Source: a virus
Reading direction: 5' to 3' (one strand)
Length of the DNA: 64,000 nucleotides
IMG/VR virus record: IMGVR_UViG_3300021961_000068
Span: 9,028-73,027 of that record
Shown here: positions 15,289 to 33,061 of the stretch, in pieces
How the letters are laid out: each line of letters begins with the position of its first letter
Position numbering within the stretch: the stretch's first letter is position 1
Position numbers and translations under genes: made by a program
Notes under the pieces: generated by a model
Told to the model about the DNA's origin: nothing
Database searches by the model: none
What the model saw: the letters and a program-made list of their open reading frames with translations, nothing else

Positions 15289-16050
15289 CTAATCCTTTTC
15301 TTTAGAGTTCTTATAGCGCTCCAACAATCGTCTGCCTTTTTCGGCAAGGCGAGCCGCCGATTCTCTGTCTTGTGGAACTGGTTCACCCCACGCCGCGGCG
15401 GAAAGAGCAAGTCGTGTTGGGCGTCCTTTTTCGTCTTTCATGGGACCTGAAGGGTTTGTGAAGAACCGTGTAAGGAATGATCCTTTGCGACGCATTTTCT
15501 CTGGTGTGTCAGCGCGACCCTTGACACCAGGTTTTAGGTTTGATCCTTCGGTGCGATTAAAGTGCGCTCTACCCGCGGCGGTTAAACCACCTTTAGGGTC
15601 TCGTAACGGTTCAGCAGATTTTTCTTTAATGATTGGTCCACCAGCGACCCATGCGCGACATGTTCTTTTTGATGCACATTTGAAATCAAACGCTTCGCAA
15701 TATCCAAGTTCACCAGCGCTATCTATCGCTTCCCATTCATCTTGTCTTTCCCCACCGGTGACACCAGATTCAATACATTTTTTCATTGACGGGGTTTGAA
15801 TAAAAAGAGAACAGTTGCCGCACAGTTGTTTCTTTGCAGATGTTGTATCCACATCCCACTCTTTTGCCAACTTGCCCCAATACTCTGTGTTGGGTTCGGC
15901 GGGATTCAGTGGACCATACATTGCTGTCTTGATTGCTTTGCCTCTGTTGGCAAGATTGACTGCAATGTCCTGTGTTGCTTTCGGGCATTGTTTATCGGCT
16001 TTGATGCGAACAGAAATCTGTTGCTCAGCCAAAATGTCAGAGAATTTCAT
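15289..16050 (-). CDS. two-module head-region protein (Cys-rich domain + DUF6321-like KGGL...NLK...SF domain)
   Basis: CGNC...GYC...CASKRTC, then DPKGGLTAAGRAHFNRTEGSNLKPGV...RRKGSFLTRF; family assignment from memory. Confidence 0.6.
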   Translation of the reverse strand: MKFSDILAEQQISVRIKADKQCPKATQDIAVNLANRGKAIKTAMYGPLNPAEPNTEYWGKLAKEWDVDTTSAKKQLCGNCSLFIQTPSMKKCIESGVTGGERQDEWEAIDSAGELGYCEAFDFKCASKRTCRAWVAGGPIIKEKSAEPLRDPKGGLTAAGRAHFNRTEGSNLKPGVKGRADTPEKMRRKGSFLTRFFTNPSGPMKDEKGRPTRLALSAAAWGEPVPQDRESAARLAEKGRRLLERYKNSKEKD

Positions 16051-17445: not shown

Positions 17446-17546
17446 GATTTTCACTCCTAGTGAATTGGATTTATGTTGGTGTTTACTTATTTTTTATTAT
17501 TAAGACTTCGGTAAGCACCTAGTCCAGTTACATTTACTGTAATACG

Positions 17547-17593: not shown

Positions 17594-19276
17594 TTATTTT
17601 GCGTGATATCGTTTTACGACTTGTGGGCAACATTTTTCGGCGTACTTGACTCCGTATTCGCCGTCGTCAAATCCTGCCCATTTTTTGGTTGTTTTTCGGT
17701 TCCGCCAAGGGTGGTCTAATGGGAGCAGGTCATTATCATCAAAATATTTGACATCTTTAGGTTTGTCTGACATCAATAGTGATAAGAACTTGGAAATGCG
17801 CTTATTTGCTGAGGCTTTGTCACCATCTTGAAGACCTCGTAGGTATACATTTTTGAGGTCTCGCAGGTTAGCCCGCTGTGCAGGCTTGGCTTTAGCGTTG
17901 TGTTGACGCACACGGACAGCAAGATTGTTGATATCGGTGCTTGTGACTGTCGGCGGTTTCTTGCGGGCTTTGGGTACGCCTTTGAATAAAAACAAGCCTT
18001 CACCTAGTTTTTCGGCAGGCTGGTCAAGTGATTTTTTTTCTTGGTTTTTAACAATAACAAACCCAGACAGTTCCCCTTTTTCATTGGTTGACGTTTCAAT
18101 GAGTACTTCGTACCCTTTGTCCTTAAGCGTCTTTGCGTAGTTTTCTAATGTTGTTTGTAACATTCTTGTGGCTTTTTCAAAGTTTGCTTTTCTTTGATCA
18201 TCAGAAAGACCGATCAAGCCCACATTTCGGTAAACACCCATTGGAACTGTGTGTTCAATTTCAAAATCGCCATTTTCTAATTTTCTAGATCGCCAACCAG
18301 CCGTCGTTGATCCATAACCACGAACCATAGCCCCACCCCTGTAGCCTGCCTTGCGATAATTACGATCATTTAGTGCTCGGGCAATTCCTACCTGTGTTGG
18401 ATTTCTGAACTTTTCCTTTATGATTTTTGGGACTACTGGTATTTTGTCTTTCCCGCCAACAATTCCACCAGTTGTGAACCCATCCCCGTCGCCGTCCACG
18501 AGTTCGTCACTAGGTTTTACTCCGATCGGCGTACCAAGAACCTTTTTCCTGAATTTTGAACCTCGTCGTCTTGGATTGTTCCTAGGGCTGTTATCCCCTC
18601 GGATACCTGTGCGACGGTTGTAGTCAGACACGTTTGTGCAGGGCATCCAAACAAGTTTTCCATCTCGTGCCGTGTAACGGCGAATACCAATACACCCAAG
18701 ATTCCTTGAACGGATACGGGCAGACTCAGGGTTACTGAAAGTATCAGGGTCGGTTGAACGGCTAACAAAGTTAACGAAACCTTTTTCCTCTACATCATCT
18801 TCAGCGTCTTTCCCCGAGAAAGAACCAGTGACCAACCCACCACCCGGTAAGGTCGCAATACCTGTAATAGGTTTCTCATCAAGTTTTTCCCAACCTTTAC
18901 GGGGTTTATGGTCGCAAGGCGTGTAATACCTTTTCCCCGCAAGGATCACAGTGCGGACACCTCCGCAACCACGCGCCTTAGAAATAGATAGAGCGTCAGC
19001 ACGGCTTTCGTAATACGCATCAGATTTTGTTTCCAAACGCTTAGTGCGTTGAACCATCTTAGGCAAAGGTTTCTTTTTCTTTGAAGCAAGGGCTTTCAGA
19101 TATTCTTCTTTGCCTTTTTTGATCGCCTCATACTCTTCATACGACCCGCACGGCATCCAATTGCCGTCTTCTCCTTCATGCGCACCACTACACCCGAGTT
19201 GACGGGCAACACGCATCGCCTGCTCTCTTGTGACCTTTGGTTTCTCTGCTTTAACAGAGAAAGGGATTGATTCCAC
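17594..19276 (-). CDS. multi-module head-associated protein with three A..LGC.G....W/Y.PC repeats
   Basis: ARQLGCSGAH...WMPC, SKARGCGGV...YTPC, SRNLGCIGI...WMPC (DUF3721-like); DGDGDG motif; C-terminal LKNVYLRG...DNDLLP module. Confidence 0.7.
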   Translation of the reverse strand: MESIPFSVKAEKPKVTREQAMRVARQLGCSGAHEGEDGNWMPCGSYEEYEAIKKGKEEYLKALASKKKKPLPKMVQRTKRLETKSDAYYESRADALSISKARGCGGVRTVILAGKRYYTPCDHKPRKGWEKLDEKPITGIATLPGGGLVTGSFSGKDAEDDVEEKGFVNFVSRSTDPDTFSNPESARIRSRNLGCIGIRRYTARDGKLVWMPCTNVSDYNRRTGIRGDNSPRNNPRRRGSKFRKKVLGTPIGVKPSDELVDGDGDGFTTGGIVGGKDKIPVVPKIIKEKFRNPTQVGIARALNDRNYRKAGYRGGAMVRGYGSTTAGWRSRKLENGDFEIEHTVPMGVYRNVGLIGLSDDQRKANFEKATRMLQTTLENYAKTLKDKGYEVLIETSTNEKGELSGFVIVKNQEKKSLDQPAEKLGEGLFLFKGVPKARKKPPTVTSTDINNLAVRVRQHNAKAKPAQRANLRDLKNVYLRGLQDGDKASANKRISKFLSLLMSDKPKDVKYFDDNDLLPLDHPWRNRKTTKKWAGFDDGEYGVKYAEKCCPQVVKRYHAK

Positions 19277-19279
19277 GGT

Positions 19280-19543
19280 TTAACCTTTTTTGCGTTTACG
19301 TTGTGATGTTTCTGTTTCTGTTTCTATAGATGTTGCTCCAGCGAACTTTGGGAACAATTCATCAACTCGTTCAGGGTTTTCTGTCAAAAAATAAACCATC
19401 TCATCTAATGCGTTTTCGTCTTTAGGATTTTCATTAGCGTAATGGAATCCAATTGTGAGTATTCGGCTACGAGTTTTTTCGTCTTTGATTTTTTCAAATA
19501 ATGACATCCGTATTTCGGTTCGTTGTTCTTCTGTAATTTTCAT
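19280..19543 (-). CDS. small orphan protein, candidate immunity protein for the upstream GNAT effector
   Basis: 87 aa, translationally coupled (TAATG) to 19543-23553. Confidence 0.55.
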   Translation of the reverse strand: MKITEEQRTEIRMSLFEKIKDEKTRSRILTIGFHYANENPKDENALDEMVYFLTENPERVDELFPKFAGATSIETETETSQRKRKKG

Positions 19544-22500
19544 TATCGTATGTTCCCGTCTGTTGGAGCCCGCAGACTTCTTGGTGTTACATCTGAATTT
19601 ACTGGAATACGTGGTCGTCTTGTACGAGTCACCCTAGGAGTAGGGGCAACTGCTTGCCCTCGTCTTCTACTACCTATTCTTTGTTCAGCAAAACTTAAAA
19701 AACCATGACCACCCTTCGCGTTTTGTTTGAACCAGTTTTTTATTTGGTTTTCTCTTCTATTACTACCAACACCGCTACCGCCCGGCAGTGAACGAGATTG
19801 GCTAACAGCAAAAATAAATTCTTGGTGTGTCCCTGGTGGTCGTTTCTCAACTAGGTATTTTAGTCTCCAATATTCTTCCGGCGAAGAAATTAGTGGTGAA
19901 TATCCAAATTTTGCATACTTGTCAAGTTCGGATTGAAATCTGCCAACATTTAGCGGATTGTCGGGTTTGAATCCAACTTTAGCCCAAACAAACTCACCGT
20001 CATCTGCTGGTCCAACCTCTGCTGTGGTCACACCTATTTTTTGCAAGAAATGGAAAGCATGTTGATTATAAAGTGTTGCTATACCTGCTCCCTTGTCAGT
20101 TTCACCTCGTCTGTTAATAAATAAACGACTCTGATACACCTTGTTTGAACCTAATTGAATGCTTCTGACTGATTCACCAATATCGGCAGCAATAATATTG
20201 CCATTGCTGTCTATCTCATGAAAACGAATACCTATGGTGTAATTAGGTCCAGCACCAGAAACATCAGCCTCCGATTTATATGTGCGACCATTTTGTCCTT
20301 TTATTGGACCAATTGAATATGCTTCTTTGAGGTACGTTTTTTTATCTGTGCGGCTTAAAGCAGCCCATTTTTGGGGAGTCATATCGGCGTATGGTTCGTT
20401 CGCTGATCCATACTTTTCGTCTAAATAATTAAACAAAACGTCTTGTCGTTTTTCAATCTGCGCAGAAATTTTGGCTTGTATTTGGTCGCCAACAGGTCCC
20501 ATTGCTTGACGTCTTTGAGAAACTTCGGGGTCGTTTAAATTCATGAACTCGTCACCTGGATTATTGGATGTTGCTCTATGTATCAACGCAGAATCAGCAT
20601 CCCAGTTATCAACGACAAGTTGTAATTGACCGACCTGTGTTAACTGTTTATACAGTTCGGTATTTTTGTATACTTGTTCCTTGACTTGCAGAGCAACAAT
20701 TTGACGGTCTGCCAATAATGTGTTTAATCTTTCTTTTGTGCTTGCAAGAAGTGTTTCCGCATCCTCTTTAGTGCGAAGTGAGCCATTTGGGTCAATATAT
20801 CCCCTAAGTCTTGCTTCTCTTTCTTTTCTCGCATCTCTAACACTTAATGTTTGAATTTTAGCAATTGCATTACCGTGCTCAGCAGACAACGAGTCTTCAA
20901 TTGATTTAACTATCAAATTCCATTGAGTTTTGGATGCTGCTCGTCTTACTTCAATTTCTTGTTCATCAATTGCATCTAAGACTTTTTGTGCGTTTCCACC
21001 AGCGGTAACTTTTGCTACAGCATTATCAAAAACGGGAGCCATATTTCTTACTTGCGCAAAATTAATTGGCTGTACAGGACCTGCTAACTGTGCCTGTCGT
21101 AATGCTTCTGCTTGTTCTCGGGCTATTCTTTCTGCCTCAAGAACCGCCACTGCTTCTTTTCTTGTTTCAAGATTTTCTAGTCTTTGTTCTAGGTTGGATA
21201 CATTGCCTAGGTTGGCGATTATTCTGTTTAATCTCTGTTCATTTGCGTTTCGCCCACTAGCATCGTCCGCTTCACGATTGCTTATCAATGCAGTTAATTC
21301 TGTCATAGCCGCTCGCAAAGCCGTTTCGCGTTCTCTTTTTCTTTCAGCAATAGTTGAATTTACTGAATCTAGACTCATGCCATTTACAGTACTTAGACGA
21401 CCCCGAGCATCGCTTTCCGCATTTTGTTTTGCAGCCACCGCCGCCCGTTCAAGTCGTTGCAATACTTGCGTTCTCTCTGCTTCGGGGAAAACTTCAGCAA
21501 AATCTGTTATGAGGTCATTAACTTTTTGCTCTAAATCTTGTCTACGTGCTTGTCCATCTGGGGTATTGATTGCGTTTTGTATTGCTGCGCTAAGTCTTGA
21601 TACTGGGGCGGTTCTAGCAAATGCCGCTTGCGTGTTTGGTGCCGCAGGTGCAGGGTCAGGCGCAGGCGCATCATTGCGATTAAGAACATTTTGCTTGTGC
21701 CAAGCAATTGCATCTTCGCGGTTGGTAAACCCTTGTTTATCTTGCGCAGGTCGACCATGGATAACAAACCATGTATTGGTAACAGCCTGCTGGTCAATGA
21801 TGTCGCCGTTTTCGTGCGTAATAATGGTGCCAGGTCCTTGATTCCACCCTTGTGGTAAAGCATTTTGTGCCCCACGATCAGGTGCTTGAGGTGCCGCGGG
21901 TGTCGGGTCGGGCGTAGGTGCTTGAGGTGCCGCGTCTGGTCTCGGTGACTGTGCTTCGGCTGCTGGTGGTGGATTATTTTCAGGTCGTCTTGTTGCAGTT
22001 CTTTCTGCTTGCCGTTCCGATGCACGACGACGATTATTTCTATTATTGGTTCTGTTGCCCTGAGCAACCTGTTCTCGTCTTTGAATTTCCGCTAATACTC
22101 GTTGATATTCGGGATTTTCTTTATCAAAATCTGGGTCTGCTTCCATTTCTCTTCGCATACCTTGGAGAACTTCATCTGATTCTGGTGCCAACAAATTTAC
22201 ATTTTGTCTTTCGTTTGCATTTGGTCGGCGTCTTTGAGGGCGAGCAGGAATATTTCTTGGTGCGCGTTCATCCGTGCGAGGGGCGCCGGGTTCAATAATT
22301 TCTCGTTCCATTCTCCGTTGTTCAGATTCACGAAGATTAGGTCGTCGCCTTTGACGGGCAGGACGAGCCTGCGGCGCTGGTGGTTCAAAATCTTGTGGTG
22401 CGCTACGACCGTGAGCATCTTTCCAAGCGTCACGAAGATTTTCTTTATTGATTGCGTACCATTCTCGGCGTGTCAACATTCCTGCGTTGCCTCCACCTTC

Positions 22501-23553
22501 ACGGATTTCGCGGACACGCTGTGCGTACTCATCGTATTTTCGTAATACGTAAGGTTTGAAGTCTTCTGTTTCTCCTGCGTCTGATGCGTCTCGTGCTGTG
22601 AGTACATCAACATTTTCAGGTTGTGGTGCAACTTGTGGGCGTGGTCGTCGTGCGGGTCTTGGAGTTGGTTCTGTTTCTGGTGTTACATCTTGTCTTGGAA
22701 GTTCAGGAACTTCCCGAGTTAGGGTTGCAGGACGAGCCCGTGGTCTATCCCTATTAATTCTTCGGTTAATAACACCGGCTAAGCCTTCGTTATTTACTCT
22801 TTCTAACAAATTCCCTCTTTGTTGAGGTTCTCCTCCCTCAAGACGCTCGGCAACGTTTCGTAGACCGCCTTCAATGCGACCCGGCTCGGCGACCCCACTT
22901 AACCTTCTGATCATTCGTGCGTTGCGACGGTCAAGGCGACGTTTCCGTTTGTCATCATCTCGTTGCTCTAGTCGTTCACCGATGTCGGCGATTTGGTTTG
23001 CGATTCGTCGCGCTACTCCCCATCCACAAGATCTGCCGAATCTGTCAGTAATCTGTCCGCCGTAGCGTGTCCCCACAGGGCATCGCCAGCCACCTCTACG
23101 GTTCGTTCCAGGAATAGACAAACCTGGATCCCAAAGAGCACGAACTCTTTTAACTTCGTAGTTGAAAGTTGTTTTTTGTTGTTCACTAATAAATGTGGCG
23201 GCTTTATAAGAAATAACGTTTTCAAATTCATATTCAGAAAATATTTTAATTGGTGCATCAGAAACAGACATAATAGGAAGATAGTCCCTGTAAATAAAGT
23301 CCGATTTGCTTCCACTTTTCAACGCCGAGGGAACTGCCGATTGAGGCATCGGACCTTGCACTGTCATTCCCGAATCTAAGGCAGCAGTTAATTCGGTTTT
23401 ATTTATTTGAGATTTACTGTATTCTTCACTAAATGCTTTGGCAATGTTTTTAGCGTCATTGGAAAGAGGTTTAAAAGTGCTTCCTTCAGCGGATGACATA
23501 ACAAGCATGAATGGCTTGCCGTTTCGTGTTTTGATAACAAACGAGGTTTTCAT
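19543..23553 (-). CDS. large modular protein: RCPVG domain + low-complexity linker + C-terminal GNAT-like acetyltransferase
   Basis: N-terminal WRCPVGTRYGGQITDRFGRSCGWG; C-terminal LFIN...KGAGIATLYN...IGVTTAEV...GEFVWAKVGF. Confidence 0.7.
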   Translation of the reverse strand: MKTSFVIKTRNGKPFMLVMSSAEGSTFKPLSNDAKNIAKAFSEEYSKSQINKTELTAALDSGMTVQGPMPQSAVPSALKSGSKSDFIYRDYLPIMSVSDAPIKIFSEYEFENVISYKAATFISEQQKTTFNYEVKRVRALWDPGLSIPGTNRRGGWRCPVGTRYGGQITDRFGRSCGWGVARRIANQIADIGERLEQRDDDKRKRRLDRRNARMIRRLSGVAEPGRIEGGLRNVAERLEGGEPQQRGNLLERVNNEGLAGVINRRINRDRPRARPATLTREVPELPRQDVTPETEPTPRPARRPRPQVAPQPENVDVLTARDASDAGETEDFKPYVLRKYDEYAQRVREIREGGGNAGMLTRREWYAINKENLRDAWKDAHGRSAPQDFEPPAPQARPARQRRRPNLRESEQRRMEREIIEPGAPRTDERAPRNIPARPQRRRPNANERQNVNLLAPESDEVLQGMRREMEADPDFDKENPEYQRVLAEIQRREQVAQGNRTNNRNNRRRASERQAERTATRRPENNPPPAAEAQSPRPDAAPQAPTPDPTPAAPQAPDRGAQNALPQGWNQGPGTIITHENGDIIDQQAVTNTWFVIHGRPAQDKQGFTNREDAIAWHKQNVLNRNDAPAPDPAPAAPNTQAAFARTAPVSRLSAAIQNAINTPDGQARRQDLEQKVNDLITDFAEVFPEAERTQVLQRLERAAVAAKQNAESDARGRLSTVNGMSLDSVNSTIAERKRERETALRAAMTELTALISNREADDASGRNANEQRLNRIIANLGNVSNLEQRLENLETRKEAVAVLEAERIAREQAEALRQAQLAGPVQPINFAQVRNMAPVFDNAVAKVTAGGNAQKVLDAIDEQEIEVRRAASKTQWNLIVKSIEDSLSAEHGNAIAKIQTLSVRDARKEREARLRGYIDPNGSLRTKEDAETLLASTKERLNTLLADRQIVALQVKEQVYKNTELYKQLTQVGQLQLVVDNWDADSALIHRATSNNPGDEFMNLNDPEVSQRRQAMGPVGDQIQAKISAQIEKRQDVLFNYLDEKYGSANEPYADMTPQKWAALSRTDKKTYLKEAYSIGPIKGQNGRTYKSEADVSGAGPNYTIGIRFHEIDSNGNIIAADIGESVRSIQLGSNKVYQSRLFINRRGETDKGAGIATLYNQHAFHFLQKIGVTTAEVGPADDGEFVWAKVGFKPDNPLNVGRFQSELDKYAKFGYSPLISSPEEYWRLKYLVEKRPPGTHQEFIFAVSQSRSLPGGSGVGSNRRENQIKNWFKQNAKGGHGFLSFAEQRIGSRRRGQAVAPTPRVTRTRRPRIPVNSDVTPRSLRAPTDGNIR

Positions 23554-23654
23554 TTAGGTCTTTCTTCTTGATATATCCCTAGAAACGAGGGAGAGAATAC
23601 CTTAAAATGGTATCACTATTATGTAAACCCAAAAGAGCAGTATAGGCACCGCCA

Positions 23655-23945
23655 CTAATTATTCAGGCTGTAACCCATTTCCTGGATTAACCCATCAATC
23701 TTAATTTTTGCTTTACCGCTATATTCACCGCTTTCGCAGTCGTAATACGAAAAGCCAGATGTGACGTCTTCAAATCCTGCCATTTCAGGACTTTCTTTAG
23801 CCACATCTTTATACCAATTAGCAAAAAATTCGTCTTCTTCTTTGTCGTCAGAGTATCTAACTACCCCATCTTCTTTTTCAATAAAAATAATAGGGTTAAG
23901 GTTTGGAACAGCAATTCCTGTCAACCTGAAAATTTTATATCGCAT
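23655..23945 (-). CDS. small acidic orphan protein, candidate immunity protein for the upstream kinase effector
   Basis: 96 aa, starts 10 bp after the kinase-gene stop; AT-rich. Confidence 0.55.
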   Translation of the reverse strand: MRYKIFRLTGIAVPNLNPIIFIEKEDGVVRYSDDKEEDEFFANWYKDVAKESPEMAGFEDVTSGFSYYDCESGEYSGKAKIKIDGLIQEMGYSLNN

Positions 23946-23955
23946 ATATACTTGA

Positions 23956-26658
23956 CTATATCACAGGTGCGAGCATCGCATCAACTATTTGTTCTGGAGT
24001 CTGCGACAACACCCAGTCTATTCTTTGTTGAGTAAATGAAATTTTGCGTGGTTCACTCGCTCGCGCACCTGACGCTCCAGTAACAGGCGGTACTTGTGGG
24101 TTTTGACCAGCGGCATCAATAACATTTTGACCAAACTCAGCGAATCTTTTTTGTGCTTCAGCCTCGCGCAAAAGTTGTTGCGATTTTCTCGCTTCTTCAA
24201 TCATTGCTGTTCTAGTCCTGCCAGCATCACGACCAGTTTCGGAGTCATGTTTAGTTCTCAAAGACCCAATTAATTTGTTTCTTCTACCTCCGTAGGAACT
24301 CTTTAACCACTTTTTAAAACCTGTTTCGTCCGCATAAGACAAATCACGGTCAAATTCTCTAGCCGCAAAACCAAGAGACGGGTCATACGGAATAACATGG
24401 TCTTGACCATTGGCATCCCTTTGGACAAAAAAGTTACCACCGTGTCTATCTGTGTTTAGAATCAAAAAATCTAACATTGTCAAACGAATTTTTTCGTTTA
24501 ACGGGATTGAATTTTCGTACCCATTTCTTTGTGGTGGGGCTACTGTGCCGTCAATGTAGTTTTCTGCATGTTCAAACAAAATTGGTCTACCTTGACCATG
24601 TCTGTCTCTGTACACAGGTCCAGCAAATCTAAATTCGCCTACCGGGTATCCAAGTCGTCCTTGAATTTCGTTTCCTAAAATCTCATTAACATCTTCATTA
24701 TTCCTATATCTTGTTCCGTCATATTTTATAAGTAGTGTTTTACCAGTATTTGCGTCTTTGTATTGCTGTATTTGACCATTACTGTTTCGCCCCAGATCAC
24801 CTAATGGTTTTAATTTGATAAAACGTTTAGACGCATCAACTGGTCCGCCCGGCTGACCGGGTCTGCCTACGCGTATTGTCGTTGAGTTTTTCTTGATTGC
24901 TTCATACACAAACTCATCGGGGACATCTGCTAAATCGCCACCATTGTTGACATGTGCTACCGCATCTTGCTTAGTGTTGATGCTTTTGTTCCCTATATCA
25001 ACTCTTTTACCTGTCCCTAAACCGTTAAAATCTCTTGGGGCAAGTTTGTTATCGTTTTCTTTTGCTTTAGCCAGGTCTGAATCCACTGTTCTTGGGGCTG
25101 GACGACCATCGTTATCGTTTCCTCTTTGTTGTTGCCTATTTGTCTCTCTTGGTCTTCTTGGTGCTCTTGGTGCTCTTGGAGCAGGTGGAGCAGGTGGAGC
25201 AGGTGGTTCTGATCGTGCAGGGGCAGGTTCCTGTGTAATTATGGCTCCGTCTAAGTCCCTTGTTCTTGTATCTTGTAAATTCCCAATACGATTACGTAGC
25301 GCATCCCTTCTTCTTTGTTCTTCTCGAACAATTGCGTCTCTTGCACCGTTTCGCTCCATTTGGTCAAGATTGCGTTCTGCTTCTGATACAAGTTTGCGTA
25401 GTTCAGCAATTTGTCTTTGGCGCTCAACTTCGTCTGATGGCATGCGAGCGTTTACAGCATTTTCCGCATTATCCGCTCTCTGTCTAGCGTCTTCAATTGC
25501 TGCTTCAGCCATTGCTTCACGGTTTTGTCGTAATTCTTCTGAACGAGCAGCATTATCGCTGTTTCCGGGTTGCCGTGGCGGTTGAGGAGGTTGACTTCTT
25601 GGTTGGGCTGGCGTATTAGTCTCTTTTTTAATTTTTCGGTTTACATAATCGCCTCGTGCGTTACGTTGATTGTTATCGTCGTAGTAGCGACCAAATCTAC
25701 GTTCAAGTTCCGCCTTGTCGTCTCCTTGATATGCGTCTTCGCGCCAGTAAGCGGTATCTGGAAGTCCTCTTTCACGAAAACGATTACGCACATTTCTTTG
25801 TGACCGAGTATCAGGAAGACTCCCACCTAGGTCTGGTGCGTTAAAATCAGGATCTGGTTCTACAACTAATGGCTGTGGAGGCGCTGATGGTGGCTTTCGT
25901 TGTGGAACCGCTGTAGGTACGGGCTTAGCGCCGTCAACGAAATCTGCTTCAGGTTTTCTGCGTGCGGTTCTCCTTGCACCCTGTTGTGTGGCGGCTCTGC
26001 GTCGCCCTCTTGGTCTATTAGGTTTTGGTGGTTCACCTGTACGAGGTGCACCGGGTTCTACGATTTCTCGTTCCATTCGTCTTTGTTCTGATTCACGAAG
26101 ATTTCCGCGACGACGTCTTGCAGGTTTTCGTCCACGTTGTTCTCGTTCTACAAGTTCCACAATTTGGTCTGTATTAATTTGTGGTGACGGTCTACCTCTT
26201 CTGCGTTGTGGACGAGGTGAAACTGAATCAATATCAGCAACTGGGAGTTGAGGTGGTTGCTCGCCGTCAAGTGCTTCAGCAACACCTCTTGCGCCACGCT
26301 CAAGAAAACCGGGTTTCTGCTGACGAGACAAAAGCCTTTGCATACGAGCATTCCGTTTAGCGATACGGTTATTTCGTTTGCGGTCATCAATATTCTCTAA
26401 ACGCTCACCAATGTCGGCAATTTGATTAGCAATACGCCTAGCAACACCCCAACCACACGAACGACCAAACCTGTCAGTTATTTGACCGCCGTAACGAGTA
26501 CCGACAGGACAACGCCAACCACCACGGCGGTTAGTGCCGGGGATGGAAAGACTTGGATCCCATAAAGCACGGACACCTTTTACTTCGTAGTTGAAAGTGC
26601 TTGCTGTTTGTTCTGAGATGAAAGTCAAAGCCTTGAAGTTGACTTCATTTTTCTGCAT
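23956..26658 (-). CDS. large modular protein: RCPVG domain + linker + C-terminal HipA/PI3K-like kinase
   Basis: Same N-terminus as 19543-23553; C-terminal LLIKY, NEILG, LDFLILNTDRHGGNF, IPYDPSLGF. Confidence 0.75.
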   Translation of the reverse strand: MQKNEVNFKALTFISEQTASTFNYEVKGVRALWDPSLSIPGTNRRGGWRCPVGTRYGGQITDRFGRSCGWGVARRIANQIADIGERLENIDDRKRNNRIAKRNARMQRLLSRQQKPGFLERGARGVAEALDGEQPPQLPVADIDSVSPRPQRRRGRPSPQINTDQIVELVEREQRGRKPARRRRGNLRESEQRRMEREIVEPGAPRTGEPPKPNRPRGRRRAATQQGARRTARRKPEADFVDGAKPVPTAVPQRKPPSAPPQPLVVEPDPDFNAPDLGGSLPDTRSQRNVRNRFRERGLPDTAYWREDAYQGDDKAELERRFGRYYDDNNQRNARGDYVNRKIKKETNTPAQPRSQPPQPPRQPGNSDNAARSEELRQNREAMAEAAIEDARQRADNAENAVNARMPSDEVERQRQIAELRKLVSEAERNLDQMERNGARDAIVREEQRRRDALRNRIGNLQDTRTRDLDGAIITQEPAPARSEPPAPPAPPAPRAPRAPRRPRETNRQQQRGNDNDGRPAPRTVDSDLAKAKENDNKLAPRDFNGLGTGKRVDIGNKSINTKQDAVAHVNNGGDLADVPDEFVYEAIKKNSTTIRVGRPGQPGGPVDASKRFIKLKPLGDLGRNSNGQIQQYKDANTGKTLLIKYDGTRYRNNEDVNEILGNEIQGRLGYPVGEFRFAGPVYRDRHGQGRPILFEHAENYIDGTVAPPQRNGYENSIPLNEKIRLTMLDFLILNTDRHGGNFFVQRDANGQDHVIPYDPSLGFAAREFDRDLSYADETGFKKWLKSSYGGRRNKLIGSLRTKHDSETGRDAGRTRTAMIEEARKSQQLLREAEAQKRFAEFGQNVIDAAGQNPQVPPVTGASGARASEPRKISFTQQRIDWVLSQTPEQIVDAMLAPVI

Positions 26659-28398
26659 TTAATTTTTCTTTCGGTTTTTAGCCAAATCTGGTTTAATGAA
26701 TGTCTCGTAAAGCCAGCGTGTAGCAGTTCGTTTAATGCCGTCAGCGCCTGTGTACTCCACAAGTTCTAATGCGTCAGGCACGGCTCCCGTATCAGCAACA
26801 AATTTGAATGCACCATCAGAATTTTTTGCGAAGTCTTCAATGTTTTTGATGATGTTGTCTTTGTTGCTTGACTCTGCAAGAGAATTGATCATGCGTGGGA
26901 ACTTGCGTTTTTCACCAATCGTGAAAGGTCGTGAGCGTTCAATACTGACAGTCACGCCGTTCGGTGCAACAAAAGCAATTTTACTCATCGATGGACCACC
27001 AAGAAGTGCCAAATCGTCCGCCTCTATGTCGGCAGGTAATTGAATAGCACGAATCATTGCGCCATCTTCCATGTCAGGGTTTTCACTAAACGAACGCAGA
27101 ACCGAAGAAGGAACAACAGGACGCAAAATGACACCATCTCGGCGAATCATTCTACCTTCTCCCCTTGGGGCACCTTTAAGCAGTTTGATTGAATCCGCTA
27201 CTGAACGATTAAATTTATCTTTTTGAAAAGCGCCAGTTCTTGGGATTTGTGCCATGCGTTGAATTTGAATAGTTCTCGTATTGCTTGGATTTCCTTCTAA
27301 TACTTCAGAAAGATTTTCTGCTCTTGCTGTTGGAAGTTTAGGGTTTACAAGTCTGCGTGCTGCTCGTGCAAGTAAAGCAAGCGGTCCTGGTATTTCAAAT
27401 AGTTGCGCACCACAAGTAGAGAAACGGTTATCTGTAAATCGTCCGCCGAATGCAAAACCGGCAGGGCATCGTGCTTGTCTTCTGCGGTTTGGCTTTAATC
27501 TACTGAGTACACCTTGTCCTCCACCCGGTATTAAAGCACCGTAAACTCTTGAACGAATAGGTGAATTTGATGGAGAAATATTTCCTGGTGTTAGCGCTGA
27601 TCCAACCGCCTGAGCCGCTCTACCTAATGGGTTACCTGAACCGATAATACCTGCTTTGGTTTCAATATCCTCAGCGTCGTCTTTCTCAACACGGTATCCA
27701 CCGCCACGTTTCTTGTATTCGCGAACAAGCCAAGCATTTGCATAAGCAGACGGGTACACATTGAACTTCTTTTTTGCTTCCGCTTTCACCCTTGCGTAAA
27801 GTTCGGAGTCAGTCGGAATATTGACACCCTTGATTTCGGTTTCTTCGCAACAAGATGTGACTACATCAGACTTCATTGTGGACACATTGATTGGCTTCTT
27901 ATCTACACGAGTCTGAGAGTTTTCGGCTCGGCGTTTCCTGCTTATAGCAGAAGCAATCTGCTCGGGAGTCATGCTCATTGCTCTAGATTTTTTTACACAT
28001 TTTGGATACTTGCCCGTATTGGCGTCTCCTCTACCGCAAGACTCAAAACCTCCACCTTTTTTGGGACGAGATATATCAACCCATTCTTCTTCAAACCATT
28101 TACCTAAACCACCTCGTTTAGTTTCATCGCCAATAAAAGTTTCTGCACCCAAACGAGAGGTACGGGATTTTAGGTAAAGTTTTGCTTTAAAGTTTAAAAG
28201 AGCCCTATTCCCGTCCAAGGGTGTTTTGCGAACGTTGGATCCTTTGGTAAAAATAAACTGTGTTTTTGCGTTCTCGGGGTCAAAAAATAGTTCTTGCCCT
28301 AACGCAATATTTGTTCTTTTCATTTTCGTTTTCTCACGCATAGACATACGAAGTTTCCGTGCGAAATATTCAAAGTCTTGGTTGAGGTAATTGTTCAT
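26659..28398 (-). CDS. multi-module head-region protein (KWFxExWVD module, YPSAYA module, RCPAG motif)
   Basis: LGKWFEEEWVDI...CGR...YPKC; LYARVKAEAKKKFNVYPSAYANAWLVREYKKRGG (DUF5872-like); RCPAGFAFGGRFTDNRFSTCG. Confidence 0.7.
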   Translation of the reverse strand: MNNYLNQDFEYFARKLRMSMREKTKMKRTNIALGQELFFDPENAKTQFIFTKGSNVRKTPLDGNRALLNFKAKLYLKSRTSRLGAETFIGDETKRGGLGKWFEEEWVDISRPKKGGGFESCGRGDANTGKYPKCVKKSRAMSMTPEQIASAISRKRRAENSQTRVDKKPINVSTMKSDVVTSCCEETEIKGVNIPTDSELYARVKAEAKKKFNVYPSAYANAWLVREYKKRGGGYRVEKDDAEDIETKAGIIGSGNPLGRAAQAVGSALTPGNISPSNSPIRSRVYGALIPGGGQGVLSRLKPNRRRQARCPAGFAFGGRFTDNRFSTCGAQLFEIPGPLALLARAARRLVNPKLPTARAENLSEVLEGNPSNTRTIQIQRMAQIPRTGAFQKDKFNRSVADSIKLLKGAPRGEGRMIRRDGVILRPVVPSSVLRSFSENPDMEDGAMIRAIQLPADIEADDLALLGGPSMSKIAFVAPNGVTVSIERSRPFTIGEKRKFPRMINSLAESSNKDNIIKNIEDFAKNSDGAFKFVADTGAVPDALELVEYTGADGIKRTATRWLYETFIKPDLAKNRKKN

Positions 28399-28540
28399 TT
28401 TGTCAGTTCTTTAGGTGCTAGTCGGTCTGAAAGGGATTTCCTTATTGCATATTGGGCACCAACCCACTGTTCCAAGAATATCAGGTTTAATACCTTCGTA
28501 AATCTTTGTGTACTAGTCAATAAGTTTTAGTCGTTTTGTT

Positions 28541-28705
28541 TTACGGGCTCCCAATACCCACAAGATAAACCTGACCCGCCCCAGATGTTGGGCTCCAAAC
28601 CGCATCTACGGTTGGCGTACCAACGGGCGCGGGTTTGTAGGTAGGTCTTCCAAGACTATCTCCGCCTGCATATGTTGAAAGCGACTCAATCTCTTTTTTC
28701 ATCAT
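28541..28705 (-). CDS. possible small ORF (54 aa, not in ORF track)
   Basis: MMKKEIESLSTYAGGDSLGRPTYKPAPVGTPTVDAVWSPTSGAGQVYLVGIGSP; overlaps end of 28686-28925. Confidence 0.35.
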   Translation of the reverse strand: MMKKEIESLSTYAGGDSLGRPTYKPAPVGTPTVDAVWSPTSGAGQVYLVGIGSP

Positions 28706-28925
28706 TAATTGATTGGCGCCAAGATTCTATGTTTTTATCGTTGATATTAAATGGAATTTTGTTTGGTTCGTTTTTGAGCATCAAACTGAAATCAGCAGAC
28801 GATACTTTGTCTCCACTGACCATATACCAAACTTTGCCATCTGTCCCATGTACAGCAAAGCCGTCGCCATACGGGAAAACTCTTTCACTCGTATTCCCAC
28901 TATATTTCGGTGAACCAATATCCAT
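28686..28925 (-). CDS. small orphan protein, candidate immunity protein for the upstream metallopeptidase
   Basis: 79 aa; ATG immediately follows the TAA of 28926-31292. Confidence 0.5.
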   Translation of the reverse strand: MDIGSPKYSGNTSERVFPYGDGFAVHGTDGKVWYMVSGDKVSSADFSLMLKNEPNKIPFNINDKNIESWRQSINDEKRD

Positions 28926-31292
28926 TTAGATAACGCTACCCTGTTCTAATTCGGGCATGGAATTTATTGCTGTCTGAAGCATCTTAACCCATGCTTTTGC
29001 TTGTGGAGTCATAATAGTCGGAGTCGCTAGACCTGAATCACTTGGTGCCATTGATTGCACCATATTTTTCATTTCGTCAAAAGATTTATCGTCCATAATT
29101 TTGGTATCAGGGAAGTTTTCTGTGAGCATTGTCAATAATTTTGCCTCAGCGAAAGCCTCCCAATTATTGGTTTGAGCATATTTTGAAGCAGAGCCAAGAA
29201 CAGGCATAATTTCGCTTGGTTTGATGCCTTTAGTATTTATTCTTGTCGAATCAAAACCTAAAGTTTCGTCAAATAGTTGTTTCCCTTCTTCCAAAAACTT
29301 TTCAATTGTTTGACCACCAAGTTGGTTTTCTACAAGTTCTCTAATTTTTTCAACTGAAGAAATACTGTCATTGTCTTCAAAAGAGTACATTGAAACTTTA
29401 TTATTTTTAACTGAAATCAATGCTTCTCTAAACAGTTTCTTTTTAGGGTCAAGACCTTCGCTAAAATTGTTAAGAATAAAACCCAAATTATCCATTACTG
29501 AATCAGAATCTAAGTCATTATCGTTGTGGGCTATATTTTTTGCATATACAGCAAAAAGAGAATTTAAATTTGGTGTAGATGTATAACCAAAAATTTTTGC
29601 CCGCATTCTTTTATCGTTGAATGCTATTTCAACATCTTCCCAATCAGTATCGGGGTCAATATTGTAAGAAACAGCAAACTTTGCGCCAATAAAAGTGTCG
29701 CCAATTTTTGAACCTTGTTTTTTGATTTGTTCAAGCGCTGGTGGGTCGGATGCTGTTGAATTTATGCCTAGCGTTTTTAAAACTTCCGCATAATGGGCGA
29801 CATGAGATAGTTCGTGTATTGAAAGACCTATTTGATAGTCATCGGTTCCTGCAATTTTTACAGAGCCGTTAAACATGTCCCCTTTTTCCATTGCGTCACC
29901 ACCGGCGCCAACATTACTTATCAGCAGTGAATCAGCATAAAATCTTGTTGCTGAAATAATTTTCCCGTCAGGGTAATCCGCTATCCACGCATAAGCCGAA
30001 GCAGTTTCAGGTCCGCCATCACCTGTTTGATGTATCTCAAATGTGAATGCTCCACGCAAAGAAGGATTGTCTTGCATATGCAATTCTGCTCCCGCGAGAG
30101 CCTCAACAAAACCTCTTCCTATTTCTTTACGGACAGCGTCACGACCATCTTCTGTCTCCAACATTGATTTGATTTTTTCTAGTTGGTCAGCGGTGTTTCT
30201 CAATCGTTCCTTTGATGCATCATCAACCCCATCTTCATCAGATTTATTTCTCAGTCGGGAAATCCTTGTAGTTAACAAATCACCTCTTAAATCATTCATC
30301 CCACCATCAAGCATTTCTTTCATGCTTCTTGACTTAGGGATACCCATTTTTGCAATCAGTTCATCACCGTATTCTTCAACTTCTTTGTTTTTTGCGTCGG
30401 GAACATATTTGTCTAAAAGTTTTGTGATTTTTGCATCCAACTCTGTGTTGAAAGAATCAGCGTCAAATGTAACTTTTGCTAAATCATCTTTTCTTATTGA
30501 AGCATCAGGTGGAGCCGCATTTGCTTTAGTGATGTCATCGGTTGGGGAGCGCGTATCTACTTTGGATTTTTCTATTTTGGGTGTATTGACTACATCTGTT
30601 GCGCCGCTTAATTCTGAGATCAAGTTGTCATCAATTTCTTTCTGTTTTTCTTTTTTCTCTTTACGCCTTTTTAGGTTCGCTAGAACAAAGTTTCTTGCAT
30701 CAACTAAGGCATCTTTTTTAAGTTTTGACGCAATTGCATCTAGTTGCTCTTTCCTTTGGTCAGATATTTTTCCTCTTTTTTGAAGAGACTCGGTAGCGAA
30801 CTCTAAAACCTGAGCCCCACCAGCCCTCAATAAAAGCATGCTCATTAATGTGGAATCAGTAAGAGAACCTGAACCGTCCACTTGCATATAATCCATTGCT
30901 TGCAAAGCCGCGAGTGCTGTTGCTTTTGCGCCGTTTCTTACGTTTTCGCTTTTTAAGATGCCTTTTGCGCCGTCAATCATTTTCCCTACCAAAGCAGCGG
31001 CTCCTCGTGCCGCCGTCTCCGCGCTAGGTATCAAACAATTGGACATTTGCATGTCGGTGAATTGGTTTGCGTTCGGAGTACCTGGTGGGCATCGCAATTT
31101 ACCTAGCGCATCCACTATCACGCCAGACGCACGAGCAGCACGTGTTCCAACAGAATCTAGATCGGGTCTATCTTTTACGGTCGGTCCGAGGAATCCTTTA
31201 AAAAGTAAAAGGTTTTCTTGAACTACCGCAACGGATTTGCGATACTCTGCGACTCTTTCGTTTGCGTCAAAAGCGCGAGACGATTTAATCAT
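28926..31292 (-). CDS. modular protein: RCPPG motif + C-terminal HExxH zinc metallopeptidase
   Basis: LRCPPGTPNANQFTDMQMSNC; SIHELSHVAH and SKYAQTNNWEAFAE (zincin, lethal-factor-like signature). Confidence 0.72.
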   Translation of the reverse strand: MIKSSRAFDANERVAEYRKSVAVVQENLLLFKGFLGPTVKDRPDLDSVGTRAARASGVIVDALGKLRCPPGTPNANQFTDMQMSNCLIPSAETAARGAAALVGKMIDGAKGILKSENVRNGAKATALAALQAMDYMQVDGSGSLTDSTLMSMLLLRAGGAQVLEFATESLQKRGKISDQRKEQLDAIASKLKKDALVDARNFVLANLKRRKEKKEKQKEIDDNLISELSGATDVVNTPKIEKSKVDTRSPTDDITKANAAPPDASIRKDDLAKVTFDADSFNTELDAKITKLLDKYVPDAKNKEVEEYGDELIAKMGIPKSRSMKEMLDGGMNDLRGDLLTTRISRLRNKSDEDGVDDASKERLRNTADQLEKIKSMLETEDGRDAVRKEIGRGFVEALAGAELHMQDNPSLRGAFTFEIHQTGDGGPETASAYAWIADYPDGKIISATRFYADSLLISNVGAGGDAMEKGDMFNGSVKIAGTDDYQIGLSIHELSHVAHYAEVLKTLGINSTASDPPALEQIKKQGSKIGDTFIGAKFAVSYNIDPDTDWEDVEIAFNDKRMRAKIFGYTSTPNLNSLFAVYAKNIAHNDNDLDSDSVMDNLGFILNNFSEGLDPKKKLFREALISVKNNKVSMYSFEDNDSISSVEKIRELVENQLGGQTIEKFLEEGKQLFDETLGFDSTRINTKGIKPSEIMPVLGSASKYAQTNNWEAFAEAKLLTMLTENFPDTKIMDDKSFDEMKNMVQSMAPSDSGLATPTIMTPQAKAWVKMLQTAINSMPELEQGSVI

Positions 31293-31304: not shown

Positions 31305-31568
31305 TCAGTCGCTTGAATCTGACGCTTTATTAATCGTTGACATTGAAACCACATCATCATCCTCTACTTCTTTTTTCTTAGAAGCCTTTTTGGGTTCCAC
31401 TTTTTCTTCAACAACTTTTTCAACGACTACTGGTTCTTCTTTGACTTCAACCTCAACAACAGCAACCTCTACTTCAGGTGTCACCACCACAGGGGCTTGT
31501 TCTTGTTTTGTATCAAAAAGGAGCCCTGAAGTGTTTACCGAATCAACAGGTTGATTTAGTTTTTTCAC
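31305..31568 (-). CDS. small Glu/Val/Lys-rich protein
   Basis: 87 aa low complexity; overlaps upstream gene. Confidence 0.6.
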   Translation of the reverse strand: MKKLNQPVDSVNTSGLLFDTKQEQAPVVVTPEVEVAVVEVEVKEEPVVVEKVVEEKVEPKKASKKKEVEDDDVVSMSTINKASDSSD

Positions 31569-33061
31569 TTGTCAAAACCTGTTTCAATTTCAAGCATCTC
31601 AAGTTCCATCAAACTGCTCAAGAACTCTTTTGCTTCATCGTCAAGGAGAACTTTCTCGTTTGGTTTCTCTGAATTCCATGATTCTGGAATCATGTCTTCT
31701 TTGCCGAGTTCCTTAGCACGCTTCATGCAATGCATCTTCGCTTCGTCTTGATCTTTTGCACGACCGACAGCCATAATTGCCATCTTCAAGTCCTCTTCAT
31801 CCTTGATTGGGTAAGAGCCGTCTGCCATTGCCATTCCGCCCTTAGCCATTTCCATGCGCTCATCTTCGCTATACATTGCTTTTAAAGCAATGTCGGCTAC
31901 TTCTTCGTCAATGTCGGCTGCTTCCTCTGGCTCATATTCATCAAAGCCAAGAATTTCACCGTCAACACCAACATAAACATCGTAAGATTTTCCGTCTACG
32001 CCTTCAATCTCTACGGCGTAAGCGTCATATCCGTCAAACATGTCTGCGTCAACAGAAACAACTTCACCATCAATTGACTTTGTTGCAATAGCGGAAGCCT
32101 CACTGAACGAAATCACTTTCTGACCAGGAACTGTTGCTACTTCGCCAATCAAGTCTTCATTGAGAAGATGCCAACCCATGCATTCACCGCTTGAACCATC
32201 AAAGTAAGCCTCAACAGGTTTTCCGTCTTTGCGTTGAACATCAACAACAAAAATATCAACTTCATCTGCGTAGCCCGAGTCAAGAACTTTCCCTGCAAAC
32301 ATACTTTCAGCCATACCTTCAACCTCTAGAAGACTTGGCATTGTGTCTTGCTGTTCGCAACCACCTGGGCATGATGCACAAATTTCTGAACCGCCCGCAT
32401 AAACCCGACGCTCAATAGCGCAAACAAAAGCAAGATCGTCATAGTCAGCCGACTTGACGCCCATTGTTTCCATGCGCTTCGCACGAGCCTTCTTGCGTTG
32501 CTCCATCATTTTTTCAATTTCGCCGTACATTTTTTCTTCTTCGTCGTCAAGATCTTCTGGCATGTCTTCTTCTTCGTCGTCTTCTTCTTCGGCGACCATT
32601 GGCATTGCAGGCTTCTTTTTCTTTTTAGGAGTAGGCATATCCTCGTCCATCACGGCGATGTCTTCTTCTAACTTTGCACCCTTTTCTTCGGATGCAGTGA
32701 CCCACTCACTCTTTTCGCCCTCAACCGGCGTTGCTACTTCTGGTGCAGCGTCATTGGGTACGGCTTCTTCTGTTTGGGTCACAGCCTTTGCTCCGCACTT
32801 ACCACAAACTTTTGCACCCGGCTTGTAACCACAATCTTTGAGTTCTAAACCTTTTGCGCACTCAATTCCGCCGTCTGCCAAAAGTTTTACTATCGGTGTT
32901 TCGCTAGCCATGTTCGTGGACTCCTTATAGTGCATTGTTTTGGCAATGCACCGTGATGGATTAGAGCAAACAGAGCATGGTGTCAAGCGTTTTTCGCCTG
33001 ACATCAAACACTGATACTTTGCTGTTTTTTGTGGTAAACCTGTTATTGAAGTATAACTCAT
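31565..33061 (-). CDS. acidic head-associated protein with PepSY-like repeats, Cys clusters and DGSYPI module
   Basis: ISFSEASAIA...GEVVSVDAD...YAVEI...YDVYVGVDGEIL (PepSY-like); MADGSYPIKDEEDLKMAIMAVGRAK; alternative start at 32911. Confidence 0.65.
   Translation of the reverse strand: MSYTSITGLPQKTAKYQCLMSGEKRLTPCSVCSNPSRCIAKTMHYKESTNMASETPIVKLLADGGIECAKGLELKDCGYKPGAKVCGKCGAKAVTQTEEAVPNDAAPEVATPVEGEKSEWVTASEEKGAKLEEDIAVMDEDMPTPKKKKKPAMPMVAEEEDDEEEDMPEDLDDEEEKMYGEIEKMMEQRKKARAKRMETMGVKSADYDDLAFVCAIERRVYAGGSEICASCPGGCEQQDTMPSLLEVEGMAESMFAGKVLDSGYADEVDIFVVDVQRKDGKPVEAYFDGSSGECMGWHLLNEDLIGEVATVPGQKVISFSEASAIATKSIDGEVVSVDADMFDGYDAYAVEIEGVDGKSYDVYVGVDGEILGFDEYEPEEAADIDEEVADIALKAMYSEDERMEMAKGGMAMADGSYPIKDEEDLKMAIMAVGRAKDQDEAKMHCMKRAKELGKEDMIPESWNSEKPNEKVLLDDEAKEFLSSLMELEMLEIETGFDK

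Follow-up and report, generated by a model that had tools for sequence, protein, structure and literature searches.

Introduction

Polymorphic toxin logic combines a constant carrier with swappable warheads, matched immunity genes and orphan cassettes. Bacterial secretion systems are known to follow it, and the toxins of the contact-dependent inhibition (CDI) and Rhs type bear the demarcation motifs VENN and PxxxxDPxGL. To our knowledge, this logic is known in phages only for the MuF fusions of temperate phages. Herein, we describe an array of four large genes sharing an RCPxG...TD...C motif (the RCP array), which lies among the head genes of an uncultured phage in a 64,000-nucleotide stretch of DNA, bases 9028-73027 of the 73-kb IMG/VR record IMGVR_UViG_3300021961_000068 (record completeness 51% by CheckV). 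This whole stretch is referred to as the window, and all positions are given relative to it. Phage effectors predicted to enter with the DNA are described as typically encoded among virion genes (PMC5512222), and head packaging has been predicted for the MuF-linked toxins (PMC3482391), which are reported only from temperate phages and prophages (PMC3482391, PMC5576092).

Results

The RCP array of the window

A six-frame search of the window with the regular expression RCP.G.{5,9}[FILV]TD.{4,7}C gave exactly four matches, each in the coding frame of one of four large genes designated W788, W579, W900 and W1336. A chance origin of the motif was rejected, as the full motif arose in none of 200 mononucleotide shuffles of the window and in none of 80,000 residue shuffles of the four proteins. 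The genes of the array and the small open reading frames (ORFs) behind three of them are the following (types A to C are defined below).

28926-31292, minus strand: W788, type A, 788 amino acids (aa); conserved N-terminal ~230 aa with RCPPGTPNANQFTDMQMSNC (31035-31094) and an exchangeable C-terminal part
28686-28925, minus strand: s79, 79-aa ORF with its start immediately behind W788; partner specific to the HExxH class
26659-28398, minus strand: W579, type B, 579 aa; DUF5872 and phrog_23735 N-terminal modules, RCPAGFAFGGRFTDNRFSTC (27412-27471) and a conserved C-terminal core
23956-26658, minus strand: W900, type C, 900 aa; N-terminal RCP domain (26455-26514), linker and C-terminal PI3/PI4-kinase/HipA-like domain
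23655-23945, minus strand: s96, 96-aa ORF 10 nucleotides (nt) behind W900; in the kinase-partner ORF group
19543-23553, minus strand: W1336, type C, 1336 aa; motif at 23026-23085, long low-complexity/coiled middle and conserved GNAT-like C-terminal domain
19280-19543, minus strand: s87, acidic helical 87-aa ORF sharing 1 nt with the W1336 stop codon; predicted binder of the W1336 end

A preliminary description of the same DNA had reported four large proteins with the shared motif between the prohead protease and the capsid gene, and their ORFs, frames and coordinates were confirmed. It had also placed a small orphan gene 0-10 bp behind each of the three enzyme genes, which agrees with the overlap of 1 nt for s87 and the distances of 10 nt for s96 and 0 nt for s79, and it had correctly noted that the fourth member, W579, lacks a small partner and abuts the next large gene, its TAA being followed directly by the ATG of W900. 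Its assignment of the motif to a constant N-terminus held for W900 and W788, in which the motif Cys lies at about residue 50 and 68, respectively, and failed for W1336 (about residue 158) and W579 (about residue 311). W1336 and W900 proved to be paralogues with 80% identity across the aligned RCP domain, and thus the independent versions of the motif number three, not four.

The RCP domain family

With residues 1-130 of W900 as the query, 457 proteins among 697 candidates were matched at E ≤ 0.01; one RCP-domain match bears the name 'hypothetical protein UFOVP1217_104 [uncultured Caudovirales phage]'. In a 41-sequence alignment covering types A-C, the residues R, C, P, G, T, D and C were all invariant. 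A search with a profile of the domain had been proposed in the preliminary description; the profile of this alignment retrieved 553 proteins of 87-4528 aa at E ≤ 1e-3 from 1.84 billion representatives (309 at ≤ 1e-10 and 72 at ≤ 1e-30). In the IMG/VR loci examined (see below), RCP genes were found in head modules, with diverse ends and small downstream ORFs. At the position of the RCP domain, no match was obtained in Pfam, PHROGs or NCBIfam. A profile sequence search of the PDB likewise gave no match, the best Foldseek hit there had an E-value of 7, and the ESM Atlas yielded no usable match. When the RCP domain and the W579 core were compared with 50,697 GenBank phage records by tblastn, no match was found. 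The literature searched yielded MuF toxins and polyvalent proteins as precedents but no RCP-type domain, a coverage that does not extend to the domain lists in the supplements of PMC5512222 and PMC5576092, which might include a related one. On these sequence comparisons, the RCP motif is the mark of a real, previously undescribed domain family, a possibility raised in the preliminary description.

An AlphaFold2 model of the RCP domain alone (110 residues, 118 sequences) reached a modest mean predicted local distance difference test (pLDDT) value of 70.9 and contained a helix, two short strands and further bridges around the motif (pLDDT ~80), followed by a long helix. The domain, ~60-100 aa long, would consist of a small beta unit with the invariant R-C-P-x-G...T-D...C and a long helix behind it. 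Strictly conserved beside neighbours that change rapidly, it would suit a role in docking or processing. The DNA coding for the domain, which cross-matches among the paralogues with 74-88% identity, may merely supply homology for recombination.

Exchange of the C-terminal ends among relatives

A scan of IMG/VR resulted in 49 loci, which together with the window contained 158 complete RCP ORFs (120 distinct); RCP ORFs running off the end of a locus were left out of the class and partner counts, and the loci were not dereplicated. The arrays hold 2-5 paralogous RCP genes, the usual orders being A-B-C-C (15 loci, window included) and A-B-C-C-C (9 loci). The three RCP types were A (CPPGTPNANQFTD, n = 36), B (CPAGFxFGGRFTD, n = 37) and C (CPVGTRYGGQITD, n = 85). 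Single-linkage BLAST clustering of the last 300 residues of the 158 ORFs gave nine C-terminal classes in total.

Kinase-like class: 83 (A 15, C 61, B 7)
W579-core class: 30 (all type B)
GNAT-like class: 22 (all type C)
HExxH class: 9 (all type A)
Four further type A classes: 4, 3, 3 and 2
One further type C class: 2

The N-termini of type A were thus joined to six C-terminal classes. Homologues with invariant C-termini had been named in the preliminary description as an outcome that would speak against its reading; types A and C were found to swap their ends, and type B (30/37) to keep a conserved one.

Among close relatives, the flanking genes are 85-95% identical and the parts behind the RCP domain are replaced at sharp DNA breakpoints, the junction between conserved and variable sequence lying 80-300 residues behind the RCP motif. 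The window and the loci L002, L003, L005 and L006, with portals 92.9-95.5% identical, carry five different type A ends, namely HExxH, a truncated 246-aa form, a kinase, an unnamed class and DUF3626. L002 shares 95.5%, 93.5% and 91.4% identity with the window in the portal, the protease and W579, respectively, but its type A gene matches residues 1-242 only. The DNA colinearity with L002, L003 and L006 extends from the portal gene to ~30567-30651 inside W788 (with L005 only to ~31035), is lost with all four over the enzyme part of W788, s79 and the spacer, and is restored at ~28559-28403. After a run through W579, it is lost a second time inside W900 at ~26250 (25576 for L002), and from this break to the g560 gene (~19230) only RCP-domain patches and one island match. 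This island (22362-22648), set in unalignable surroundings, is 83-92% identical at the nucleotide level to the middle one of the type C paralogues in L002, L003, L005 and L006.

W788 itself is a reciprocal mosaic: compared with L021, it shows 47-68% identity over residues 1-180 but 80-97% over residues 301-780, and compared with L002, it shows 80-97% identity in the N-terminus and no match afterwards, indicating recombination and not fast divergence alone. Displaced modules were also observed. In L005 and L022, a different type A end is followed by a 253-aa kinase fragment (catalytic DRH → ERD) together with the partner ORF of this fragment, the type A gene of L012 is split, and L023, L027 and L040 retain an extra shortened partner ORF; no displaced cassettes were found in the window itself. 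The polymorphic-toxin layout asserted in the preliminary description was therefore borne out across the relatives by exchangeable ends, class-specific downstream ORFs and displaced modules.

The DUF3626 end (39 bits) was observed in the type A proteins of L006, L007 and L008 (e.g. L006:6271-7956). DUF3626 is described as a domain of the Salmonella type III effector SopF (PMC6682159).

Enzyme-like ends and their small partners

The three ends of the window had been labelled GNAT-like, kinase and HExxH peptidase; the kinase label was supported by its motif (D[RK]HxxN in 76/76), the HExxH end showed an invariant HExxHxxH (9/9) and is a putative peptidase, and the first label was not confirmed (0/14 Pfam matches). 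The C-terminal domain of W1336 (~19669-20493) contains the conserved GAGIATLYNQHAF at 20053-20091. None of 14 homologues matched any acetyltransferase Pfam family (E ≤ 0.5), and no PDB sequence match was obtained; with an ESM Atlas score of 0.92 to a cluster bearing PF00583 in 20% of its members as the sole lead, the label stays unconfirmed.

The s87 family was found behind 20/22 genes of the GNAT-like class (16 distinct sequences). A complex of the W1336 C-terminal domain and s87 was predicted with a median score of 0.71 (runs 0.68-0.73), the best of three controls scoring 0.00, so that the complex check proposed in the preliminary description came out in favour of this pair. The score mark used is reached by 58/80 solved complexes and 2/110 mismatched pairs, and is approximate here because our own alignments were used. 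The runs agreed in at least 63% of the contacts, the pLDDT of the partner was at least 74, and the predicted interface takes in residues 139-152, which carry an invariant T-x-Y-N motif. The prediction thus supports binding of s87 by the W1336 C-terminal domain.

In W900, the kinase-like domain starts from ~24948 and has the catalytic loop DRHGGN at aa 737-742 (24433-24450). PF00454 scored 16 bits in W900 against a cut-off of 27.1, and 30.6 bits in the type A protein of L003. The assignment of the W900 end to PI3/PI4-kinase/HipA-like kinases is supported by the sequence D[RK]HxxN, present in 76/76 type A/C members of the kinase class. An ORF of 50-220 aa lies at the stop of 75/76 type A/C kinase genes; these partners belong to several sequence families, and a G-[FYM]-S-Y stretch appeared by eye to be common to many of them. 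s96 gave tblastn matches of 27-33% identity behind the kinase genes of relatives, and clustered by BLAST with 38 kinase partners.

The linker of W900 is basic, Pro-rich and of low complexity. One relative gave a sub-threshold histone-H1-like match (PF07382, 30.9 bits against a cut-off of 40). A second conserved linear motif, NLRESEQRRMERE-h-x-x-PGAPRT, was observed in the low-complexity linkers of W900 (RESEQRRMERE at 26065-26097) and W1336 (RESEQRRMERE at 22300-22332) and in 16/85 type C proteins; it may be a site of cleavage or docking.

The exchangeable end of W788 bears HELSHVAH at 29793-29816, and HExxHxxH was invariant in 9/9 homologues of this end (8 distinct), some of which are only 26-43% identical. 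No Pfam family matched the HExxH end, which is regarded as a putative zincin-like peptidase. The s79 family follows 9/9 HExxH-class genes of the relatives (7 distinct sequences). Own partners were likewise found for the CT4 class (142-157 aa) and the DUF3626 class (66 aa).

The type B protein W579

The core domain of W579 (~26662-27230) has no partner ORF. Its AlphaFold2 model showed pLDDT values of 80-90 for model residues 150-339. The core gave weak matches to 'minor capsid protein' entries of BFVD (E 2e-4 to 1e-3, template modelling score 0.24-0.31) and 0 PDB matches at E ≤ 0.001 with Foldseek. For 13/30 type B genes, an ORF occurred in the search range, but lay inside the next gene in another frame and was treated as spurious.

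The phrog_23735 and DUF5872 modules of W579 (27870-28113 and ~27690-27815; aa 96-176 and 195-236) are also encoded on their own, as small proteins, by Pelagibacter, Roseobacter and Synechococcus phages, and shorter type B orthologues (428-456 aa) lack them. Seven type B proteins (L043-L048, L029) have an extra tail of 246-289 aa, which by eye resembles the start of the kinase domain and could represent a pseudokinase or else some other domain.

Giant fused relatives and the X domain

Proteins of 2000-4500 aa were present among the best 150 profile matches. The consensus of these giants has an X domain in front, after which come the W579 core with its type B RCP domain, another RCP domain of type C, a long linker and, lastly, a GNAT-like and a kinase-like domain; some, e.g. 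P0238 and P0228, have two tandem RCP motifs. A Pfam search of 18 giants identified PI3_PI4_kinase in three (E ≤ 1e-3) and NUDIX, Sigma70_r4, Sigma70_r4_2, HTH_3, HTH_17 and PolyA_pol in one each. Giants ending in a kinase are likewise followed by a 67-95 aa ORF of like style.

An IMG/VR scan with six giants confirmed 419/455 candidate stretches. In 10/11 distant loci, the giant gene lies between protease/g498-like and g560-like/capsid genes, and the eleventh, L108, has no flanks. The order portal(MuF)-protease-g498-like-RCP gene(s)-g560-like-capsid is thus common to the close relatives and 10/11 distant loci, and is kept down to a capsid protein identity with the window of only 55-66%. Since the giants fuse the modules at the same place in the head module, the window array can be viewed as a split version of one polyvalent-type protein.

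33974-34150, minus strand: X domain, aa 368-426 of the window protease; Cys/His-bearing (GPRRGNLE...WPNEG), N-terminus of the giants in relatives

This segment of the window protease shares 65-85% identity with the N-terminal end of the giants in L055, L057, L059, L065 and L071 (~10007-10291), where the protease lacks it. As judged from these alignments, the X domain is a module that moves between the protease and a cargo-like protein.

The head module and the phage

The head module is encoded on the minus strand in the order portal(MuF), protease, 498-aa protein, 87-aa ORF, RCP array, 560-aa protein and capsid. The genes surrounding the array are as follows.

35344-37554, minus strand: portal with C-terminal MuF domain (PF04860, 163.8 bits; PF04233, 29.8 bits against a cut-off of 29.6)
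33116-35251, minus strand: prohead protease, S78 domain at aa 27-172 (42.9 bits) and long C-terminal extension
31565-33061, minus strand: g498, very acidic 498-aa protein with a sub-threshold PepSY match
31305-31568, minus strand: 87-aa ORF between g498 and W788
17594-19276, minus strand: g560, basic 560-aa protein with DUF3721, between the array and the capsid gene
16132-17454, minus strand: HK97-type major capsid gene (152.4 bits), lower boundary of the array together with g560

No extension was found behind the MuF domain of the portal, in agreement with the earlier statement that MuF sits on the portal without a toxin tip. The genes bracketing the array, g498 and g560, are kept in every relative examined. 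In the capsid protein, ~165 residues precede the Pfam capsid match. Its closest cultured relatives are those of the actinobacterial myophages Cantare (Brevibacterium phage) and GMA6 (Gordonia phage), with ~47-48% identity; Cantare and GMA6 carry large unnamed genes between portal and capsid, yet the RCP motif was not found there.

The plus strand of the window encodes tail sheath, tail tube and tape measure genes, and the window also codes for primase/helicase, ribonucleotide reductase and DNA methyltransferase. These tail, replication and nucleotide genes identify the phage as a large myovirus, an uncultured and probably virulent one. No tRNA genes were found in the window, and no PF00589 integrase in the 73-kb record, which is 51% complete. 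Among 185,579 prokaryote species (one genome each), no relatives came up in a scan sensitive to close ones only.

Downstream of the capsid gene lies a 253-aa protein (15289-16050), the DUF6321 part of which matches the protease-gene region of L041, L043 and L048 at 77-92%; the protease region of L050 matches instead its N-terminal part (residues 17-143, 56% identity). A PAPS-reductase-like gene (41886-43019; phrog_2302, E 8e-75) is located between the terminase and tail genes.

Discussion

Interpretation of the array and alternative explanations

Considering the head-gene position, the tight coupling, the fusion link to the protease, and the likeness in logic to MuF toxins and polyvalent proteins, the array is best explained as a set of recombination-driven cassettes in the head-morphogenesis module, and it appears probable that the RCP proteins are effectors that are packaged in the head and ejected from it. 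They are large modular proteins, in which the RCP domain and long basic, Pro-rich linkers are joined to an exchangeable C-terminal enzyme domain, and every enzyme class is accompanied by a small partner gene of its own, to which it is translationally coupled. The RCP proteins would be produced late, enter the prohead, exit together with the DNA and work as early effectors in the next host cell. The small partner would bind its enzyme and restrain it in the cell where both are made, whether as inhibitor, immunity protein or chaperone. Packaging, ejection, toxicity and a loading role of the RCP domain are properties that we infer. If the proteins are indeed packaged and ejected, they would represent a new protein-delivery route of virulent phages and a rich supply of unknown enzyme/inhibitor pairs, and the RCP domain would become a handle for virion cargo in metagenomes.

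Several observations weigh against the packaged-effector explanation. The virion location is deduced from gene position and a weak fold likeness, the sole structural hint to the head being the BFVD matches of the W579 core, and a MuF-like nature of the core found no support, hhalign against this phage's own MuF domain giving a probability of 0.3%. The RCP region had a pLDDT of <50 within the W579 model (18 sequences), and the model of the domain alone averaged just the 70.9 given above. The RCP domain is internal in W579 and W1336, and forms a tandem pair in some giant relatives, a placing which argues against a simple terminal loading tag. Type B proteins keep one conserved, non-swapping end without a partner ORF in 30/37 cases, and the other seven, single-linked to the kinase cluster, lack both DRHxxN and a credible partner. 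The GNAT identity of the W1336 end is unconfirmed by the Pfam and PDB searches; moreover, a hidden Markov model of s87 detected 23 ORFs, none of them in the giant-ORF loci with an internal GNAT-like domain, and the partner is thus either not always needed or diverged past detection. The constant type B end and this missing s87-type partner in the giants also speak against a simple loading tag. The counts of RCP proteins are also not those of independent events, because the loci are related and partly redundant.

A more far-reaching version of the packaged-effector explanation takes the RCP domain as defining a second, undescribed capsid-trafficking class of polymorphic effector-immunity systems, in virulent aquatic myoviruses. 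The arrays would be loaded and ejected, and their fast-swapping pairs would play a part in phage-host conflict or in rivalry among co-infecting phages, the partners guarding the infected cell against the effectors of superinfecting relatives. This extension is regarded as rather unlikely.

Alternatively, the RCP proteins might be structural head-internal parts (scaffold, core or DNA-condensing), the linkers binding DNA, the enzymes serving assembly or processing, and the small ORFs acting as assembly chaperones. The array indeed occupies the protease-capsid interval, where scaffold genes usually lie, and the very basic, Pro-rich linkers with the sub-threshold histone-H1-like match in one relative, the conservation and synteny of W579 throughout, and the shift of the X domain between the protease and a giant protein would all suit such a role. 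However, neither the swapping of unrelated enzyme ends among phages with portals >92% identical nor the keeping of displaced modules would be expected of structural parts, and a delta-type scaffold could, as we infer, be provided by the ~165 residues ahead of the Pfam capsid match; we thus consider a structural role improbable.

It seems improbable as well that the RCP proteins are never-packaged cytoplasmic enzymes for takeover or anti-defence, made late or early with cognate regulators, for which the head module would be just a hitch-hiking site. This explanation would be at odds with a position kept over relatives with capsid identity of only 55-66%, with the fusion of the modules to a domain belonging to the window's prohead protease, and with the strand and tight coupling common to all array and head genes. 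On its side are the lack of evidence of packaging, the kinase, peptidase and DUF3626 ends, which suit host manipulation, and the hypervariable accessory islands known in many phage modules.

Finally, classical polymorphic toxins serving a lysogen in bacterial competition, as proposed for the MuF toxins of temperate phages, would account for the variable end, the small downstream ORF and the orphan modules, but are highly improbable in view of the missing PF00589 integrase in the 73-kb record (51% complete), the missing relatives among 185,579 prokaryote species genomes (close relatives only being visible to the scan), the RCP proteins devoid of a MuF domain, and the nearby replication and nucleotide-metabolism genes of a large myovirus.

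Comparison with known systems

CDI (CdiA-CT/CdiI) and Rhs systems resemble the RCP arrays in their sharp junction between conserved and variable parts, in the joint exchange of the end and its immunity gene, and in the orphans located downstream. They are, however, bacterial surface or secretion systems, whereas the RCP proteins have neither a secretion signal nor a known demarcation motif.

The injected proteins of T4, P1 and SPN3US are targeted by short peptides at the N-terminus or through adaptor proteins, not by an RCP-like domain, and we know of no report of a cognate small partner for each enzyme. No sequence relation of the RCP proteins to these injected proteins was found, no comparison aimed at them having been made. 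Like the proposed RCP effectors, the T4 internal proteins and Alt, the P1 Dar proteins and the SPN3US ejection proteins (PMC9958956, PMC9024508, PMC7411985) are loaded into the prohead, ejected along with the DNA and encoded near head genes, and their phages possess a prohead protease.

With the MuF toxins, the RCP arrays share the location in the head/packaging module, a constant part joined to a variable C-terminal enzyme or toxin, and a small ORF immediately downstream (PMC3482391, PMC5576092). Head packaging and delivery with the DNA have been predicted for the MuF toxins, and would hold for the RCP proteins as well. In contrast to the MuF toxins, the constant part is the RCP domain and not MuF (PF04233, PF06152 or relatives): the four proteins gave no Pfam MuF match at E ≤ 0.1, and the W579 core reached a hhalign probability of 0.3% with the portal MuF domain. 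The RCP genes do not lie directly behind the portal, form multi-gene arrays, and show no sign of lysogeny.

Polyvalent proteins are, like the RCP proteins, large and encoded beside virion genes, combine kinase, GNAT, peptidase and nucleic-acid-related domains, and have been proposed to be injected early (PMC5512222). The giant RCP relatives carry, as polyvalent proteins do, several disparate domains in one ORF, and the RCP proteins of the window, having a single enzyme end each, can be viewed as a split form of them. The kinase domains differ, being PI3/PI4-kinase/HipA-like in the RCP proteins and of a truncated Ser/Thr/Tyr-kinase-like clade in the described polyvalent proteins (PMC5512222). 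Apart from the weak kinase match and DUF5872, no match to the described Pfam families was found in the RCP proteins of the window. Unlike the polyvalent proteins, the RCP proteins have a cognate small ORF per end. As the sequences indicate, what the window and its relatives contain is a polymorphic exchange pattern on a different, undescribed carrier domain, organized in arrays and giant fusions in the head module of a large uncultured myovirus clade.

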